Source: a virus (Duplodnaviria > Caudoviricetes). Taken from it: a stretch of DNA of 64,000 bases. The notes below the pieces were generated by a model. That model did no database searches, was not told the DNA's origin, and saw only the letters and a program-made list of their open reading frames with translations. The stretch covers positions 1-64,000 of the IMG/VR virus record IMGVR_UViG_3300032216_002106; one strand, written 5' to 3'. Both the position numbers and the translations under genes were made by a program. Positions within the stretch are counted from its first letter, which is position 1; each line of letters begins with the position of its first letter. Of this stretch, positions 19,433-34,303 are shown piece after piece.

Positions 19433-19458
19433 AGCAGTTTAACGTCTTGCTTAGGACG
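19433..19458 (-). ncRNA. motif A pseudoknot leader, copy 1
   Basis: CGTCCTAAGCAAGACGTTAAACTGCT. Confidence 0.75.
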
Positions 19459-19465
19459 ATAGCTA

Positions 19466-19720
19466 CTATTTATTTACTAGTGCAGCAAGTTCTTCTGCAG
19501 TGCCTACCTTAGTTATTGACAGCTCTTGACTAAAACAACTTCTTGAAGATACCAATAAATCGTATACAACATTGTCGTAGTTAACACGAGCCTTACGTGT
19601 ACCTGTGTAATTGTTTATTAATGAATGTAATTTCCATTCTTCTGTATGTAATTGGTCTTTTAATTTGTTAATCTTTTGTTTTTGATTAAACAATTGACGA
19701 AGCGTTGGTGATTTAGCCAT
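19466..19720 (-). CDS. hypothetical protein
   Basis: start MAKSPT at 19720. Confidence 0.5.
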   Translation of the reverse strand: MAKSPTLRQLFNQKQKINKLKDQLHTEEWKLHSLINNYTGTRKARVNYDNVVYDLLVSSRSCFSQELSITKVGTAEELAALVNK

Positions 19721-20654
19721 TGGTTGTTTTATAAGAAAGTTGAGGAAGGCTTGTGCCTGGAAATGGAACAAACCCCGCACTCAACATAGCGTCAAACAGA
19801 TCCCATGCATCATCTGCAGTGTAGTGTTCCTGTGGTTTGTACGTACGCCAGTGAGACATAGGTGCCATAGATCCTGACTTGGTATACAAGACAAGGAACC
19901 GACCCTTTGACTTATGGTCTTCTGGTGGAGCGTACCACCAAGCACATGCGTTATCAGGGGCAGACCCCCTGTACTGATCACGTACTTCAGAACGTTTTAC
20001 CAATAGCTCACGATACTTCTTGAACCAAGTCAAGTGAATGCACCATGGCTTATAGCCTTGGATCTCTTGCTGGAACTCAGATAGATTTGTCAATTGCTGC
20101 TGGAATGAACCACAAGAACAATAAGGTTCTTTAACCTTTTGTTGTGCAGTAACTTCTTCTAAATCAGAGTCCATGTCTACTTCCTCATCAGAATCATAGA
20201 ATCCTTCTGGTGCAATCAAGTGACCAAGATCTGTATGCTCACTTTGCAGCATAGCTTTAAGCTTGTCTTTACTCTTAAGGTAAATGAACTTATCAATCCA
20301 TTCCCTTTGTAGTAACGCTTGACCAGTCTTGTGGCTCAGCTGATGTTGATAGTGCCAACCTTTTAACATTACGTAAGAGTTATTATGCCAGATACCAGGA
20401 CCTCTATAGTTAGGACCAAGGTATGCAAAAAAGTTTTTAAGACGACCAGTAAATTGCTGGTACGCATTAATCACATCTTGCCTAGGCACTAATAGCTCAT
20501 TGCCATCTTGATGTACTACAACAATATTGTTATCACGTAGATAGATCCCGCTTACAGTGGTTTCATCAAACTCTGGTAGTGCACGTTTAATGTTGCTAAT
20601 AGAATAGATTTGTTTTTGTGCAGAATTAAATTGGTCTTGAATTAGATTGTTCAT
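19713..20654 (-). CDS. SWIM zinc-finger protein
   Basis: PYCSCGSF...PWCIH (CxC-Xn-CxH). Confidence 0.55.
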   Translation of the reverse strand: MNNLIQDQFNSAQKQIYSISNIKRALPEFDETTVSGIYLRDNNIVVVHQDGNELLVPRQDVINAYQQFTGRLKNFFAYLGPNYRGPGIWHNNSYVMLKGWHYQHQLSHKTGQALLQREWIDKFIYLKSKDKLKAMLQSEHTDLGHLIAPEGFYDSDEEVDMDSDLEEVTAQQKVKEPYCSCGSFQQQLTNLSEFQQEIQGYKPWCIHLTWFKKYRELLVKRSEVRDQYRGSAPDNACAWWYAPPEDHKSKGRFLVLYTKSGSMAPMSHWRTYKPQEHYTADDAWDLFDAMLSAGFVPFPGTSLPQLSYKTTNG

Positions 20655-20675
20655 TAGTTAGAATTGAGTTGGTGA

Positions 20676-20891
20676 TTAGATGAACAGGTCGTCCTGCTCT
20701 GCCGGAATTTTAGCAGAGCTAGGGGCAGAGTCATAGGCTCTCTTACCAATTTTTAACAAACCATAGGCAAGCATCCCCCAGGTAATAGGGTTAGCAAGTG
20801 ATGCCGCAAGGAATGTTCCCCCTACGGCATAGGGTGCCGTGTGTTTGATAGCAGCCTTTAGTTTTGTGTTCATAGTGGTAGCATTGAGCAA
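20676..20891 (-). CDS. small membrane protein
   Basis: hydrophobic core; likely start MNTKLK at 20873. Confidence 0.5.
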   Translation of the reverse strand: MLNATTMNTKLKAAIKHTAPYAVGGTFLAASLANPITWGMLAYGLLKIGKRAYDSAPSSAKIPAEQDDLFI

Positions 20892-20905
20892 AGCTGTTCA
20901 GACTT

Positions 20906-21166
20906 ATGGAAATCAAAGTCATGCCCTTAAGCAAATTAGAACTTGACCCAGGGTTAGCTGATTTGTTTTGGAAAGAAAAAGTACAACGAGAGATTAACGA
21001 AAATACCTCAGTCAATGAACTAAGGCAGTACGCATCTTTGTTGTTGTCACTTGCAGTACAACGTCAAGGAATAATAAAAGGACTTGCAAAAGAATTGCTC
21101 ACTATCAAACATCTATTGATAGATGATAGTGAGCTTGCAAATCCTGAGATTACACCAGAGAGTTAG
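20906..21166 (+). CDS. putative NblA-like phycobilisome degradation protein
   Basis: L-x2-DLF-x5-REI-x5-NELRQYASLLLSLAVQRQGIIKGL two-helix spacing; opposite strand; TG-n-TAGCAT at 20876-20884; pattern recognition only. Confidence 0.4.
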   Translation: MEIKVMPLSKLELDPGLADLFWKEKVQREINENTSVNELRQYASLLLSLAVQRQGIIKGLAKELLTIKHLLIDDSELANPEITPES

Positions 21167-22233
21167 ATGAGTGAATCGTCTTCTCCAGTTACAGGATCCC
21201 TGGCACTAGGCAAAGCAGTTATGTCAACTTCTTTGGTGTTACGTAGTTCAGGTAGTATCTCTACTCCTTCTCGTATTCCATAAGCACCACCAAGCTTTGC
21301 AGCATCCTGCTTAGCATGTTGATTGATATAGTCCTGGAACATTACTTGATATTTCCAAGTTGATTCTCGATCTGCATCAGGAATACTCATTGCATTTAAT
21401 GATTCGACTGCTGCTTCTTGTGTGCTGTAATCAGGGATATCAAACCCTTCAATAGCACATATCTCAACGTTATTAGCGCCGCGCATGTCATTAACAAGCT
21501 GAGGTGTAAATACTGTTGTTGCATAGAACTTTTCATTGAATGCCAATGGAATCTCTGAGTCAAGTGCTTTGCTCAAGCACTTAGACATTTCTTTTTCATA
21601 CATTTTAATCTTTTCAGCTGCATCAGTACCATTAAGTCCTTTCAAGGTAAGGACCATAGGCAGCTTATGTGCCCGTTGATTTTCTGTAGTAAGAATAAAA
21701 ATTAAGTACTTGGTACGTACACTGTACTTACGTTTGTACATTTCGCCTTTACTGTTAGCAAGATCAGCAGCAACCTTGTCATTATCCCAAAGAGACTTGA
21801 CATCATCATTATCAAACGTGCCAATCGTTTGCCTCATTCCCGTAGTTTCCTCAACCATAAGGGGAGAACGTAGAAGGACTTGAACTCTAGGCTGAGTGAA
21901 ATTGAGTCCTTCTTCGATTGAAGTATTGGGAGCCATACCAAAAGTTTGCTTGTAGTTCCAGATAACTGAACCTTTAGCAAATTGATCTTCAGTTGCGCTC
22001 CATCCGCAAGTATCAAGGTCTGAGTTCCGCACGAACCAACCTCTTGTTTTAGACTTGTTGAGGGGTTGGATCGTGACAAAGTTTTGATAGCCCGAAACAA
22101 ATTCTTTAGATTGAAATAGCGCAAAAGATTCAATGCCACGTGTTGTAATAGCAGAGGATTTTTTCATAGCCATGGTCGGAGTTAATTTCGTAGTAGGTGA
22201 GTTGGTCGTGGTGTCAAACAAAGTGCTAGTCAT
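21163..22233 (-). CDS. DUF5895-like cyanobacterial protein
   Basis: GWFVRNSDLDTCGW...PRVQVLLRSPLM...PMVLTLKG; adjacent to SSB. Confidence 0.45.
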   Translation of the reverse strand: MTSTLFDTTTNSPTTKLTPTMAMKKSSAITTRGIESFALFQSKEFVSGYQNFVTIQPLNKSKTRGWFVRNSDLDTCGWSATEDQFAKGSVIWNYKQTFGMAPNTSIEEGLNFTQPRVQVLLRSPLMVEETTGMRQTIGTFDNDDVKSLWDNDKVAADLANSKGEMYKRKYSVRTKYLIFILTTENQRAHKLPMVLTLKGLNGTDAAEKIKMYEKEMSKCLSKALDSEIPLAFNEKFYATTVFTPQLVNDMRGANNVEICAIEGFDIPDYSTQEAAVESLNAMSIPDADRESTWKYQVMFQDYINQHAKQDAAKLGGAYGIREGVEILPELRNTKEVDITALPSARDPVTGEDDSLI

Positions 22234-33160: not shown

Positions 33161-33329
33161 CGTTCATATTTGTCATGGTAAATTTCTCACCAGTGACAGG
33201 ATCAATGAAGCCTCCAACGAATCCAATCCCATTACGGTCAGCGGATTCTTTCATTAATGCTACAAACCTCATCGCTTCAAGACGACGTAAGCTTGTGGCA
33301 TCAGGCACAGTCAGATCAGAGTTAGACAT
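33126..33329 (-). CDS. hypothetical protein
   Basis: 67 aa. Confidence 0.5.
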   Translation of the reverse strand: MSNSDLTVPDATSLRRLEAMRFVALMKESADRNGIGFVGGFIDPVTGEKFTMTNMNDDNIHPRIEGI

Positions 33330-33361
33330 TGGATGGGGAAGTTAAGGTTTGATTAATGAAC

Positions 33362-33670
33362 TTAGGATTTTACTAGATTCTGTTTGACATCCATACTAAA
33401 TATCATATCTGCATCAGTCGGATCTTCATATCCCATAACATCAATAGGATCAATGTCAGGAAAGCAGACCGGCTGGTCGAATTGAACATCGACCAAGACT
33501 GTGAGATACGCAGTGGATAGGTCAACCCAATCTTCGGTCAACCAATTGATAGCATGTTGTTTGTTCACCAGGTATACGGTGCGATCATGCCACACGCCCT
33601 CGCATTTAATCTTGTAGTCAATGATGGCACCGAAGTGCGTACCGCTGATAGGCATTGGAGCATCAGTCAT
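33362..33670 (-). CDS. hypothetical early protein
   Basis: 102 aa. Confidence 0.5.
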   Translation of the reverse strand: MTDAPMPISGTHFGAIIDYKIKCEGVWHDRTVYLVNKQHAINWLTEDWVDLSTAYLTVLVDVQFDQPVCFPDIDPIDVMGYEDPTDADMIFSMDVKQNLVKS

Positions 33671-33706
33671 TAGATTCCGTGGTGATGGTGGACAGGGGTG
33701 AGGGGA

Positions 33707-33985
33707 TTATGCGAAAGGCGTAAAGCCTGGTGCATCTATTAACTCTTGTAGTGTCCATACAGCATTTGCTGCTAGCTTACTGAACACAACTTTGTTATTA
33801 GTGTTATCAGTGACATATTCATCTGACTGATCTTCTATTACTTCACAGCCTGCCTCCTCTAGCTCATCGCAAAACTCATCCCATGCCATGTACTTGCCAT
33901 AGACATGAGCGTATCTGCCCGTGGCATCTGCCACTAATGCAACATAGTGATTCATTGTACTCATTTGTGGGGTGATTGTACTCAT
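33707..33985 (-). CDS. hypothetical early protein
   Basis: 92 aa. Confidence 0.5.
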   Translation of the reverse strand: MSTITPQMSTMNHYVALVADATGRYAHVYGKYMAWDEFCDELEEAGCEVIEDQSDEYVTDNTNNKVVFSKLAANAVWTLQELIDAPGFTPFA

Positions 33986-34254
33986 TACTTGTGTAGCTCT
34001 TGGTGTTGTTGCCAGTGAGCAGCATGGATCTCTGCTGCTGTTACAGCGGATTCACCTCCGGTGTTGTCATAGAGGTACTCAGGTGTTGGGTCATAGCCCG
34101 TTACCTCTTGTAGTGCATCTATGCACTCCGAGATAGTATCCAGCACCCACTGTGGTGCAGAATACATTTGGTCTTTGGCTTCCTCCTGTTTGAGGACAGC
34201 GTTCATTTCTTTGATCCAGCGTTCGCATGCGCACTCTGGAGTCTTGTCTGTCAT
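33985..34254 (-). CDS. hypothetical early protein
   Basis: start revised to MTDKTP. Confidence 0.5.
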   Translation of the reverse strand: MTDKTPECACERWIKEMNAVLKQEEAKDQMYSAPQWVLDTISECIDALQEVTGYDPTPEYLYDNTGGESAVTAAEIHAAHWQQHQELHK

Positions 34255-34275
34255 GAGTTGAATTGCGGTGGGACA

Positions 34276-34303
34276 CAGGCAGTTTAACGTCATGCCTAGG
34301 ACG
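34276..34303 (-). ncRNA. motif A pseudoknot leader, copy 8
   Basis: CGTCCTAGGCATGACGTTAAACTGCCTG. Confidence 0.75.

Follow-up and report, generated by a model that had tools for sequence, protein, structure and literature searches.

Eight gaps between the cyanophage replication genes of the window (the whole 64,000-nt stretch of DNA that was analysed) each carry one copy of a short minus-strand element, whose folding into a compact H-type RNA pseudoknot is strongly supported and which belongs to a class spread over many unrelated phages. It resembles coremin, an xrRNA present in numerous RNA viruses, beny- and cucumoviruses among them. A Watson-Crick type of coremin has been described (PMC10321173). 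We tentatively propose, with confidence somewhat short of even, that the knot may be a protein-independent barrier and 5′ stabiliser between cistrons.

A pattern search for CGTC-N(4-12)-GACGYWAAAC returned eight exact matches in the window, at 19437, 22260, 23128, 26125, 26357, 31053, 31734 and 34282, on the minus strand only; shuffled windows gave a mean of 0.01 matches and reached eight in 0 of 100 shuffles. A covariance model scored these copies at 31.7–49 bits and the next best window match at 8.2 bits, and the complete 76-kb virus record contains no copy beyond these eight. These results bear out the eight minus-strand intergenic copies (8/8 intergenic) described in an earlier note on this DNA, whose coordinates are the low ends of the copies with the downstream TGC(C)T(G) segment included. 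The pairings it listed were likewise recovered: four copies pair AGCA/TGCT, three pair (C)AGGCA/TGCCT(G), and the copy at 23128 alone is limited to GCA/TGC.

Copy 1 (19433..19458, minus strand like all the others; 41.5 bits) has S1 CGUC/GACG, loop CUAAGCAA, L3 UUAAAC and S2 AGCA/UGCU; its AAAC lies 25 nt from the ATG at 19411, which opens a 37-aa ORF followed by a 242-aa gene (19291..18563). Copy 2 (22254..22282; 31.7 bits), with the 9-nt loop CUCAGGCAU, L3 CUAAAC and S2 CAGGCA/UGCCUG, precedes a DUF5895 gene (ATG 22233, end 21163). The S1 of copy 3 (23125..23149; 35.9 bits), in which L3 is UAAAAC and S2 consists of GCA/UGC only, begins 5 nt after a stop codon, and an SSB gene (23102..22302) follows. 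Copy 4 (26121..26146; 48.6 bits) lies between a stop codon 6 nt 5′ of S1 and a GP88-family gene (26096..25314), and copy 5 (26353..26378; 47.6 bits) lies ahead of a 58-aa ORF (ATG 26329, end 26153). Copy 6 (31049..31074; 45.2 bits) has a stop 5 nt 5′ of S1 and is separated by a 35-nt gap from the ATG of a PcfJ-like 567-aa gene (31017..29314). Copy 7 (31728..31756; 34.1 bits) again has a 9-nt loop and S2 CAGGCA/UGCCUG, with a stop 11 nt 5′ of S1 and a 70-aa ORF downstream (ATG 31706, end 31494). Copy 8 (34276..34303; 49 bits), the first in the direction of transcription, has S2 UAGGCA/UGCCUG, one pair of which is U:G, and precedes an 89-aa ORF (ATG 34254, end 33985). Directly 3′ of each pseudoknot is a G-poor, C/A-rich leader (eight leaders within 19412..34275, minus strand) of 19–31 nt between the end of S2 and the ATG; five of the eight have no predicted structure under nested folding. 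In all eight copies an ORF-opening ATG lies 25–35 nt past AAAC and no Shine-Dalgarno (SD) sequence was found in the spacer, as the earlier note had reported.

The pseudoknot comprises a 4-bp S1 (CGUC/GACG), L1 CU, an S2 of 4–6 bp and free sequence, a single unpaired base as L2, and L3 UUAAAC. The AAA within L3 is invariant and in all likelihood docks on S1. The window alone is weak evidence for this fold, because its covariation amounts to one A:U to G:C swap, common to three copies that resemble mutual duplicates. The relatives make the covariation decisive. About 300 copies were found in 80 related S-EIV1-like phage contigs, and the covariation across related contigs that the earlier note had proposed looking for is present: in three alignments the share of pair cells that do pair is 91.4%, 94.0% and 93.7%, against 11–50% in slid controls, and the observed value was reached in 0 of 500 shuffles. 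Compensatory swaps and G:U pairs are numerous in both stems. S2 pairs swap among GC, AU, UA and GU (in one example GC 69, AU 64, GU 10), the outer S1 pair is CG in 123 cases, UA in 12, GC in 5 and AU in 4, and inner S1 pairs swap too (CGAC/GUCG, UCUC/GAGA, UGCC/GGCA). The loop-closing C:G pair is near-invariant (147/148 and 53/53). The AAA of L3 is unchanged in 148 unique copies while the first two L3 bases vary; L3 accepts insertions and is shorter than 6 nt in no copy. All 305 covariance-model hits fall on the gene strand, and this strand specificity, together with two covarying stems and frequent G:U pairs, sustains the earlier claim of an RNA pseudoknot rather than a DNA site.

Placement between genes is also constrained. 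S1 begins exactly 5 nt after the upstream stop in 88 of 254 copies and 6 nt after it in 16, and almost never closer; a minimum of 4–5 nt after the stop codon is kept in other phages and prophages as well. On the downstream side, AAAC lies 25–28 nt from the ATG in 177 of 257 copies, with a G-poor leader of ~20 nt between the end of S2 and the ATG (spacer G content 4.8% across relatives). Both spacings recur in at least ten unrelated downstream gene families, and the pseudoknot stands before 20 gene families. It also precedes a stretch annotated in GenBank as a tRNA pseudogene, where ARAGORN made no call, and terminator hairpins without an ORF. Upstream of the copies there is no conserved promoter, no −35/−10 signal and no slippery site. 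The missing promoter and the non-ORF downstream contexts counter a promoter role and a translation-only role. Within the late operon of Firmicutes prophages, the knot stands at the head of the scaffold-capsid segment, for which added stability would make sense.

The same core occurs in Staphylococcus, Enterococcus, Mycobacterium, Vibrio, crAss-like, T4-like and T7-like phages, and ~17 of roughly 30 positions are fixed in very distant phages, unpaired ones included (C and U of L1, AAAC of L3). Since the carrier phages have no common proteins, the partner of the knot would be a universal host factor, or there would be none. In other phages 31–90 or more nt separate the ATG from the knot, which is followed by an ordinary SD site. 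A U-run often follows S2 in AT-rich phages; cyanophage copies have none.

In the proposed reading each copy is transcribed within the minus-strand replication-gene RNA and, once folded, would act as a mechanical barrier in the polycistronic mRNA without a dedicated protein. It would lie at least 5 nt past the upstream stop, just beyond the footprint of a ribosome that ends translation there, and just beyond that of a ribosome initiating on the next gene (the ~20-nt unstructured, G-poor landing pad), and because it lies outside both footprints it could remain permanently folded. We infer that it would block decay from the 5′ end, whether by RNase J, the exonuclease that cyanobacteria and Firmicutes possess, or by RNase E scanning, and that each downstream cistron would thereby keep a stable, structure-free start region. 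Structured xrRNAs stop bacterial RNase J1 in vitro by fold alone (PMC5760640), and RNase J is present in cyanobacteria (PMC12464536). Against a barrier to nucleases, no RNA ends were seen in the only RNA runs found, which consist of assembled contigs of a 90–95% relative, one of them crossing copy 1 uninterrupted. Further, one carrier lineage infects Vibrio, which is not known to have RNase J, and a pure nuclease barrier would not need the narrow 25–28-nt spacing to the ATG.

That spacing, kept in at least ten gene families despite within-family indels, instead favours a rather unlikely reading in which the knot is a translation-initiation element at the 5′ boundary of an unstructured, G-poor landing pad. 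It could aid loading of the 30S subunit without an SD sequence, via the platform or protein S1, or insulate the start region, so that this neither pairs with RNA further upstream nor meets ribosomes coming off the preceding gene. The G-poor leaders without SD sequences are in keeping with this, late genes of the same phage using SD-like sites, as are other early and middle window genes, which have a 5′ hairpin and then a G-poor leader (21–23 nt to ~40 nt); the coremin fold, too, acts on ribosomes, halting scanning and stimulating frameshifting (PMC10520033, PMC10321173). However, since leaders of this kind also precede genes that have no knot, the knot is not the SD replacement, and its positions before the tRNA-pseudogene stretch and the ORF-less terminator hairpins argue against a translation element. 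The SD-independent enhancer suggested in the earlier note fits the fixed ATG spacing of this lineage; the other phages have 31–90 or more nt and ordinary SD sites. A 3′ stabiliser of the upstream cistron against 3′–5′ exonucleases, or a pause or partial terminator just past its stop, would explain why the distance to the upstream stop (mode 5 nt, in phages generally) is kept more strictly than that to the downstream start, and the U-runs of AT-rich phages suit it. We give it a very small probability: U-runs are missing from the cyanophage copies, for about a quarter of copies no ORF ends within 50 nt upstream, some lie directly 3′ of a terminator-like hairpin, and the 25–28-nt spacing to the next ATG is left unexplained. 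A DNA-level site, either a phage-specific promoter class or an operator, has next to no probability. Restriction to one temporal gene block, upstream of genes, and a second repeated motif marking adjoining early genes speak for it, but in S2 the loop covaries with a segment 10 nt downstream, and read from the opposite strand its G:U cells, over 100 in number, would become A:C. Moreover, one genome mixes CGUC/GACG, UGUC/GACA, AGUC/GACU and GGUC/GACC side by side, a range that a single DNA-binding protein would not accept; the −35/−10 signal is absent, and no RNA polymerase domain appeared in the ten of the window's large ORFs that were scanned.

The many fixed positions, unpaired ones included, are typical of aptamers such as preQ1-I or SAM-II, which have the same topology. 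The knot might therefore sense a small ligand or a universal host protein, its folding competing with pairings that would conceal the start site. For Staphylococcus phage SA13 an alternative 19-bp helix is possible, in which L3 and the 3′ strand of S2 pair with the beginning of the scaffold gene and its SD sequence (−26.1 kcal/mol, z −3.4). In a Ruminococcus prophage the AAGGAC of the SD sequence is a potential partner of GUCCUU (z −2.2), and some copies in a Selenomonadaceae MAG directly precede terminator hairpins. Such a switch is nonetheless unlikely: the window copies have no expression platform, their leaders being unstructured and without SD, and the eight stand ahead of unrelated genes; most other Firmicutes leaders have no significant alternative fold (z about 0), the single unpaired base between the helices leaves little space for a pocket, and coremin functions ligand-free. 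The very small, highly conserved fold, its carriers without common proteins and its fixed position directly past stop codons would also suit a processing signal or small ribozyme, cut at the 5′ edge of the knot by itself or by RNase P, E or III to free monocistronic mRNAs, and small self-cleaving ribozymes are common in phages. This is very unlikely, given that no Rfam ribozyme family matched even at E≤10, that 30 nt is below the size of any known self-cleaving class, that an RNA contig bridges copy 1, and that self-cleavage is not reported for coremin RNAs.

The window copies have no match in Rfam, even at E≤10. The earlier note had treated such a match as the mark of a described family; the class as a whole nevertheless overlaps the 5′ half of RF03003, the GP20-b motif, and is not wholly unknown. 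GP20-b was reportedly described by Weinberg et al. in 2017 as a candidate cis-regulatory RNA that precedes the GP20 scaffold genes of phages. The Firmicutes form of the element is this 5′ half: an Enterococcus prophage copy followed by a Phage_scaffold gene scored 48.9 bits with our model and 25.5 bits with RF03003, and the SA13 copy 11 bits with RF03003, both under the RF03003 threshold of 36.2 bits. The 5′ half of GP20-b has the layout of the phage element, with a GUC...GRC stem and an S2-like helix in which the loop pairs with the stretch that follows UAAAA. Beyond this GP20-b has a second hairpin and an A-rich tail, and its definition rests on the scaffold-gene context, whereas the eight window copies stand ahead of replication genes, have neither addition and give no score against RF03003. 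RF01106 (SBWMV1_UPD-PKb), a knot of the upstream pseudoknot domain in a furovirus 3′ UTR, has the consensus CGc-uGUACAGU-gCG-UUAAAC-UGUAC and thus the same order of S1, 8-nt loop, UUAAAC and an S2 starting UG. The match is weak (15.7 bits, E 4.4, for the Enterococcus prophage copy; none for a window copy), and RF01106 differs in its 3-bp S1 of other sequence and its plant RNA virus origin. The SAM_alpha riboswitch weakly matches the second hairpin of the Enterococcus copy (11.1 bits, E 3.3) and of the Staphylococcus copy (10.3 bits), and its consensus also has a hairpin followed by UUAAA, as does the pistol ribozyme. Such hairpins in other RNAs mean that the coremin likeness may come from a fold grammar common to such RNAs and need not imply the same function.

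The resemblance to coremin is real. The earlier note gave the coremin sequence correctly as GUCCGAAGACGUUAAACUAC (PMC10520033). Both RNAs have a GUC/GAC stem, a first loop C and the spacer GUUAAACU, in the layout GUCC-loop-GAC-GUUAAACU(A/G)C, and some phage copies read exactly GACGUUAAACUAC. Natural variation in the phage element obeys the mutational rules of coremin: mutagenesis is mirrored in the penultimate loop A paired to U19 and the invariant AAA, and in both RNAs the first two spacer bases are variable and insertion is tolerated but deletion is not. In the Watson-Crick type (xrRNA-WCC) the loop pairs with the spacer, likewise as in the phage element. The pseudoknot proposed in the earlier note stands, and the likeness is deeper than it stated, but two features required for Xrn1 resistance of coremin, a second hairpin directly past the spacer and a loop G at position 2, are both absent from the window copies. 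The phage loop has 8 nt with U or C at position 2, its S2 has 4–6 bp from U19 compared with 3 bp from C18 in coremin, and it lies in 5′ leaders of DNA-phage mRNAs rather than 3′ UTRs of RNA viruses. A tight knot alone would be insufficient, since known compact frameshift pseudoknots fail to stall Xrn1 (PMC10321173).

The T4 gene 32 leader, a translational operator cited in PMC10690425, also combines a 5′ pseudoknot, an unstructured leader and a phage SSB gene, much as window copy 3 does. The T4 element is single-copy, has another sequence and is bound by its own protein, whereas the element described here stands before 20 gene families and is present in phages whose SSBs are unrelated.

In architecture the element is close to several known knots. 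Luteovirid frameshift knots, preQ1-I and SAM-II are compact triplex H-type pseudoknots, with which it has in common a short GC-rich S1, an L1 of 1–2 nt and an A-rich L3 of 6–7 nt able to lie in the S1 groove. None of these Rfam families reaches its gathering threshold, SAM_alpha giving the one weak match among them; the phage element differs in having no slippery site upstream and in an S2 that does not hide an SD sequence. In its proposed working it resembles the intercistronic barriers of chloroplasts, formed by PPR10-type proteins, and the 5′ stabilisers of Bacillus, which halt 5′–3′ trimming by RNase J between cistrons and keep the next start open. The comparison concerns how they work only: there the block is a bound protein, a stalled ribosome or a simple hairpin (Bacillus stabilisers are reviewed in PMC3997798), and in the phage it would be an RNA knot alone.

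A search of the window with CGTC-N(4-12)-GACGYWAAAC returned eight matches, all on the minus strand, against 0.01 expected by chance. These are the eight repeated minus-strand elements (19433–34303) described in an earlier note on this DNA, and the whole 76-kb virus record holds no more. Each copy of this small leader (hereafter the knot) comprises, 5′ to 3′, a first stem (S1), a loop that includes the 5′ strand of a second stem (S2), a linker of the UUAAAC type (L3), and the 3′ strand of S2; S1 is CGUC/GACG in 8/8 copies. A covariance model built in this analysis scored the eight copies at 31.7–49 bits, compared with at most 8.2 bits for everything else in the window. 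As that note had also described, every copy is intergenic; all eight fall within the minus-strand block of replication genes. The genes 3′ of the copies are SSB, GP88-family, DUF5895, and PcfJ-like genes and small ORFs, yet the DNA polymerase A gene (23155..25008), which belongs to the same block, has no copy directly ahead of it.

The window is akin to Synechococcus phage S-EIV1 (80% identity over 846 nt, same gene order), which has seven knot copies of its own. RNA libraries contain the region: two metatranscriptome runs (8% of words) are represented by contigs of a 90–95% relative, one of which spans copy 1 (19433..19458), and these contigs yielded no usable 5′ or 3′ RNA ends. The contigs of this relative skip 261 nt of the window (19462–19722) and have 11 other bases there, and a small ORF-sized indel therefore adjoins copy 1. 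Directly upstream of copy 5 (26353..26378), two 15-nt direct repeats (CAATGTAGGTTTTAC) with 8 nt between them occupy 26379–26425 on the minus strand and may serve as a protein-binding site.

The knot is an RNA H-type pseudoknot. Eighty related viral contigs were collected by searching for homologues of the GP88-family gene. In these, the matches to a loose regular expression numbered 297 on the gene strand and 3 on the opposite strand, and the covariance model, which was made from S2 alone, found 305 copies, all on the gene strand. In three alignments (A1, A2, and A3), 91.4%, 94.0%, and 93.7% of cells were paired, compared with 17–50%, 24–50%, and 11–39% in the respective slid controls, and the observed score was reached by 0/500 shuffles in each case. 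Changes on both sides were seen in 6–7 of the ten knot pairs across the three alignments. The pairs of S2 swap freely (one is GC 69, AU 64, and GU 10 times; another CG 77, UG 43, and UA 8 times), as does the outer pair of S1 (CG 123, UA 12, GC 5, AU 4), and the inner S1 pairs also swap in other phages (CGAC/GUCG, UCUC/GAGA, UGCC/GGCA). More than 100 cells are G:U, which on the opposite strand would be A:C mismatches, and four versions of S1 occur within one genome; a double-stranded DNA site is excluded on these grounds. The claim that the element is an RNA pseudoknot rather than a DNA site is thus borne out, since both helices covary, including the pairing of the loop with the downstream segment, and the copies are strand-specific.

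The unpaired bases are also highly constrained. In 148 unique copies, the first loop base is C in 145, the second is U in 135 and C in the other 13, and the penultimate is A in 147; L3 contains AAA in 148/148, followed by C in 141 and then U in 145. Nested folding gave only S1 and an open leader in five of the eight window copies. A subclass with a 7-nt loop (CUGGGAU), present in the comparison sequences L015 (at 5353), L082 (at 9947), L051 (at 14257), and others, has an L3 of 8 nt (UUAAACUC or UUAAAAGC) and an S2 of GGAU/AUCC, the longer L3 being a compensating change of geometry.

The sole signal upstream of the knot in the relatives is T-R-A at −8 to −6, the stop codon of the preceding ORF. 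Across 254 unique copies, the distance from this stop to S1 is exactly 5 nt in 88, 6 nt in 16, and almost never shorter. On the other side, the first ATG follows AAAC by 25–28 nt in 177 of 257 copies (S-EIV1-like relatives), and the intervening spacer in the relatives contains 4.8% G. Both spacing limits are seen again in at least ten unrelated downstream gene families and lengths drift inside families, so the limits are selected and not merely inherited. Counted from the first base of the P-site codon, the ribosomal helicase site is ~11 nt further 3′, and ~15–20 nt 5′ of the start is covered in initiation complexes; given this geometry, even at its closest positions the knot would not be unfolded by a terminating or an initiating ribosome, and it appears to be placed just where neither does so. 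The two hard limits (5 nt after the stop, ~20 nt before the start) would then be ribosome footprints readable from sequence alone. In other phages as well, at least 4–6 nt separate the stop codon from the start of the knot, which lies 31–90 or more nt ahead of ordinary SD sites and in places is followed by terminator hairpins and no ORF.

Elsewhere in the window, the late structural genes (38235–64000, plus strand) are densely packed, with SD-like sites (AAGGAG, GGAGA) at several of them, whereas the early and middle genes (19000–37500, minus strand) have a 5′ structure and then a G-poor leader, the structure in genes other than those with a knot being a dissimilar 5′ hairpin; the phage thus has two translation-start regimes. 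A second repeated leader, GGGGG-CUGCG-CAUCCUAAcAA-CGCAG-ACAUCC, occurs at 37389, 36571, 35526, and 34730 (minus strand). Three copies stop ~21 nt short of the ATG that opens a small early gene, and the fourth, at 37389, stops ~45 nt short of its ATG. The hairpin of this leader covaries in relatives (CUGCG/CGCAG, AUGCG/CGCAU, ACGCG/CGCGU). At the gene at 29250, another hairpin precedes the same AGACAUYC box as in this leader.

When one genome per prokaryote species was scanned with the exact pattern, 32 loci, many of them prophages, turned up in very diverse taxa. Loop and downstream segment pair over 4–7 bp in about 32 of 37 exact-pattern matches, although the pattern makes no such demand. Phage scaffold-like genes lie downstream of nine leaders, with Pfam Phage_scaffold or DUF4355 in 7/8 scanned. 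A BLAST search of named phages with a 32-nt query returned 157 records, of which 85 are Staphylococcus phages in which the head-morphogenesis and GP20 scaffold genes flank the knot. Other carriers in this search are Vibrio, Lactobacillus, Mycobacterium, Arthrobacter, Bacillus, and Moorella phages, two crAss-like phages, a T4-like Synechococcus phage, and T7-like Nostoc and Paracoccus phages. In Firmicutes phages, the knot stands at the head of the scaffold–capsid segment in the late operon. With carriers that span cyanophages, Staphylococcus, Enterococcus, Mycobacterium, Vibrio, crAss-like, T4-like, and T7-like phages, the knot, whatever its function, ranks among the smallest and most widely distributed RNA folds of phages, and its covariation is clear.

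Some individual loci have unusual surroundings. In a Bradymonadales MAG (L092), a CRISPR array at 1233–2569 repeats a 37-nt unit at least 19 times, and its spacer at 1788–1826 is a full pseudoknot copy; phages of this host therefore have the knot and are targeted there. About eight copies occur within 4 kb of a Selenomonadaceae MAG (L098, 246–4000) in mostly non-coding sequence adjoining a DUF3800-like gene, with strong terminator hairpins directly after several knots and a terminator ahead of one. In Nostoc phage NMeng1 (L125, 1501–1606), 3 nt separate the knot from a following stretch annotated in GenBank as a tRNA pseudogene, an order that recalls plant-virus 3′ UTRs. A tRNA-like partner was rejected there, as ARAGORN made no call on the GenBank pseudo-tRNA.

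Several functions can be weighed against these data. A translation landing-pad organiser or insulator is rather unlikely; the 31–90 or more nt before SD sites in other phages tie the fixed ATG spacing to the S-EIV1 lineage in particular, the general features being the fold and the post-stop limit. A switch controlled by a ligand or protein is a good deal less probable. It is hinted at by Staphylococcus phage SA13 (L123, 2517–2589), where an alternative 19-bp helix (MFE −26.1 kcal/mol, z −3.4), which L3, the 3′ strand of S2, and the U-run of the knot can form, covers the SD sequence and the start of the GP20 scaffold gene, and this leader, as modeled, resembles a knot-based translational switch. 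The window copies, however, are without such a fold, the alternative in the three AGGCA copies being no better than in shuffles (z −0.8 to −0.9). We consider a processing signal or ribozyme very improbable; Rfam searches over 64 kb, 15 kb, and 311 nt, run with the gathering threshold and with E ≤ 10, gave no match at any window copy, so that none of the curated Rfam families, including riboswitch, ribozyme, and leader models, accounts for them. An element serving the upstream cistron, whose stop codon is the sole signal on that side, is marginally less probable still, and a DNA site retains only the faintest chance.

Other readings were rejected outright. A promoter is contradicted by the lack of upstream conservation and of consensus −35/−10 sites: information content in the relatives is at most 0.2 bit from −70 to −9, and a sigma-70 scan found fewer sites than in shuffles, none tied to knot copies. 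A signal for frameshifting or readthrough in the gene upstream was discarded: there is no conserved slippery sequence at −14 to −9, and the distances to the ATG favor no reading frame. An operator regulon of the SSB (gp32-like) was dropped, as the knot precedes 20 gene families and the carrier phages have unrelated proteins.

Coremin, the Xrn1-blocking motif of beny- and cucumoviruses, is built of two hairpins, the second termed hp2, joined by a conserved spacer (PMC10520033, PMC10321173), and its Box1 sequence had been quoted correctly in the earlier note (PMC10520033). In the spacer, GUUAAACUAC, the AAA, C18, and U19 are essential and the first UU is replaceable; lengthening is tolerated, but shortening is not. 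The coremin loop begins with Y and has the consensus YGAD or YGNNAD with a required G at position 2, and Xrn1 resistance requires hp2 directly after the spacer (PMC10520033). In a Watson–Crick variant, the loop pairs with the spacer (PMC10321173), and coremin also stalls scanning ribosomes and drives frameshifting (PMC10520033, PMC10321173). The phage knot has the GUC/GAC stem with a C:G loop-closing pair (147/148 and 53/53 unique copies) and the spacer, in which the first two L3 positions vary (UU, UA, CU, AA, AU) and position 20 is G or A, paired with the loop. The phage loop, C-(U/C)-N4-5-A-(U/A/C), retains Y at position 1 and the penultimate A but departs from the consensus with U or C at position 2. 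Nested folding found no hp2 in the window copies, whose G-poor leaders have no fold after S2; a second hairpin occurs only in GP20-type copies of Firmicutes prophages. The phage knot thus obeys all coremin rules but two, those on hp2 and the loop G. The earlier interpretation finds partial support: it is sound as to the pseudoknot and the coremin sequence, and the likeness extends to stem, spacer, and loop edges. The link to coremin is a well-founded hypothesis that can be tested directly.

Our tentative reading is that the knot is a protein-independent barrier and 5′ stabilizer between cistrons. It would stay folded between the footprints of terminating and initiating ribosomes, act without a phage-specific partner, block RNase J, and hinder scanning by RNase E, and chosen cistrons of a polycistronic mRNA would thereby outlive the rest. 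We favor this because the knot would have to stay folded between the footprints and would need no phage-specific partner, because its grammar is common to a proven exonuclease blocker, because exoribonuclease-resistant RNA (xrRNA) folds stop RNase J1 in vitro and cyanobacteria have RNase J, and because it heads the scaffold–capsid segment of the Firmicutes late operon. Most host groups of the carrier phages other than cyanobacteria also have RNase J. The halt of RNase J1 is described in PMC5760640, and cyanobacterial RNase J in PMC12464536. Against a barrier, the window copies lack the second hairpin and loop G of coremin, and the knot also occurs in phages of Vibrio, which is not known to have RNase J. 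Compact frameshift pseudoknots, moreover, do not stall Xrn1 (PMC10321173). It is possible, if doubtful, that the knot is the first natural bacteriophage xrRNA, of one fold with plant-virus coremin and used by phages of many bacterial phyla, blocking RNase J. To our knowledge, exonuclease-resistant RNAs are so far known from eukaryotic viruses only, and a literature search found no paper tying coremin, xrRNA, or GP20-b to phage mRNA stability. A phage counterpart, if true, would make exonuclease resistance a universal strategy and provide a 30-nt protein-free stabilizer for bacterial mRNAs.

GP20-b (RF03003) is a candidate motif ahead of phage scaffold genes, of unknown function according to Rfam, and its model combines the knot with a second hairpin and an A-rich tail. 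An Enterococcus prophage copy scored 25.5 bits and the Staphylococcus SA13 copy 11 bits against this model, both under the 36.2-bit gathering threshold. Like GP20-b, the Firmicutes copies precede Phage_scaffold or DUF4355 genes, whereas the window copies precede none. The Enterococcus copy also weakly matches RF01106, the furovirus 3′ UTR pseudoknot, with identical layout. The knot adds a new variant, stripped down and multi-copy, to a class known to Rfam only as an orphan candidate, and it ties GP20-b to a well-studied plant-virus element, making both functions directly testable.
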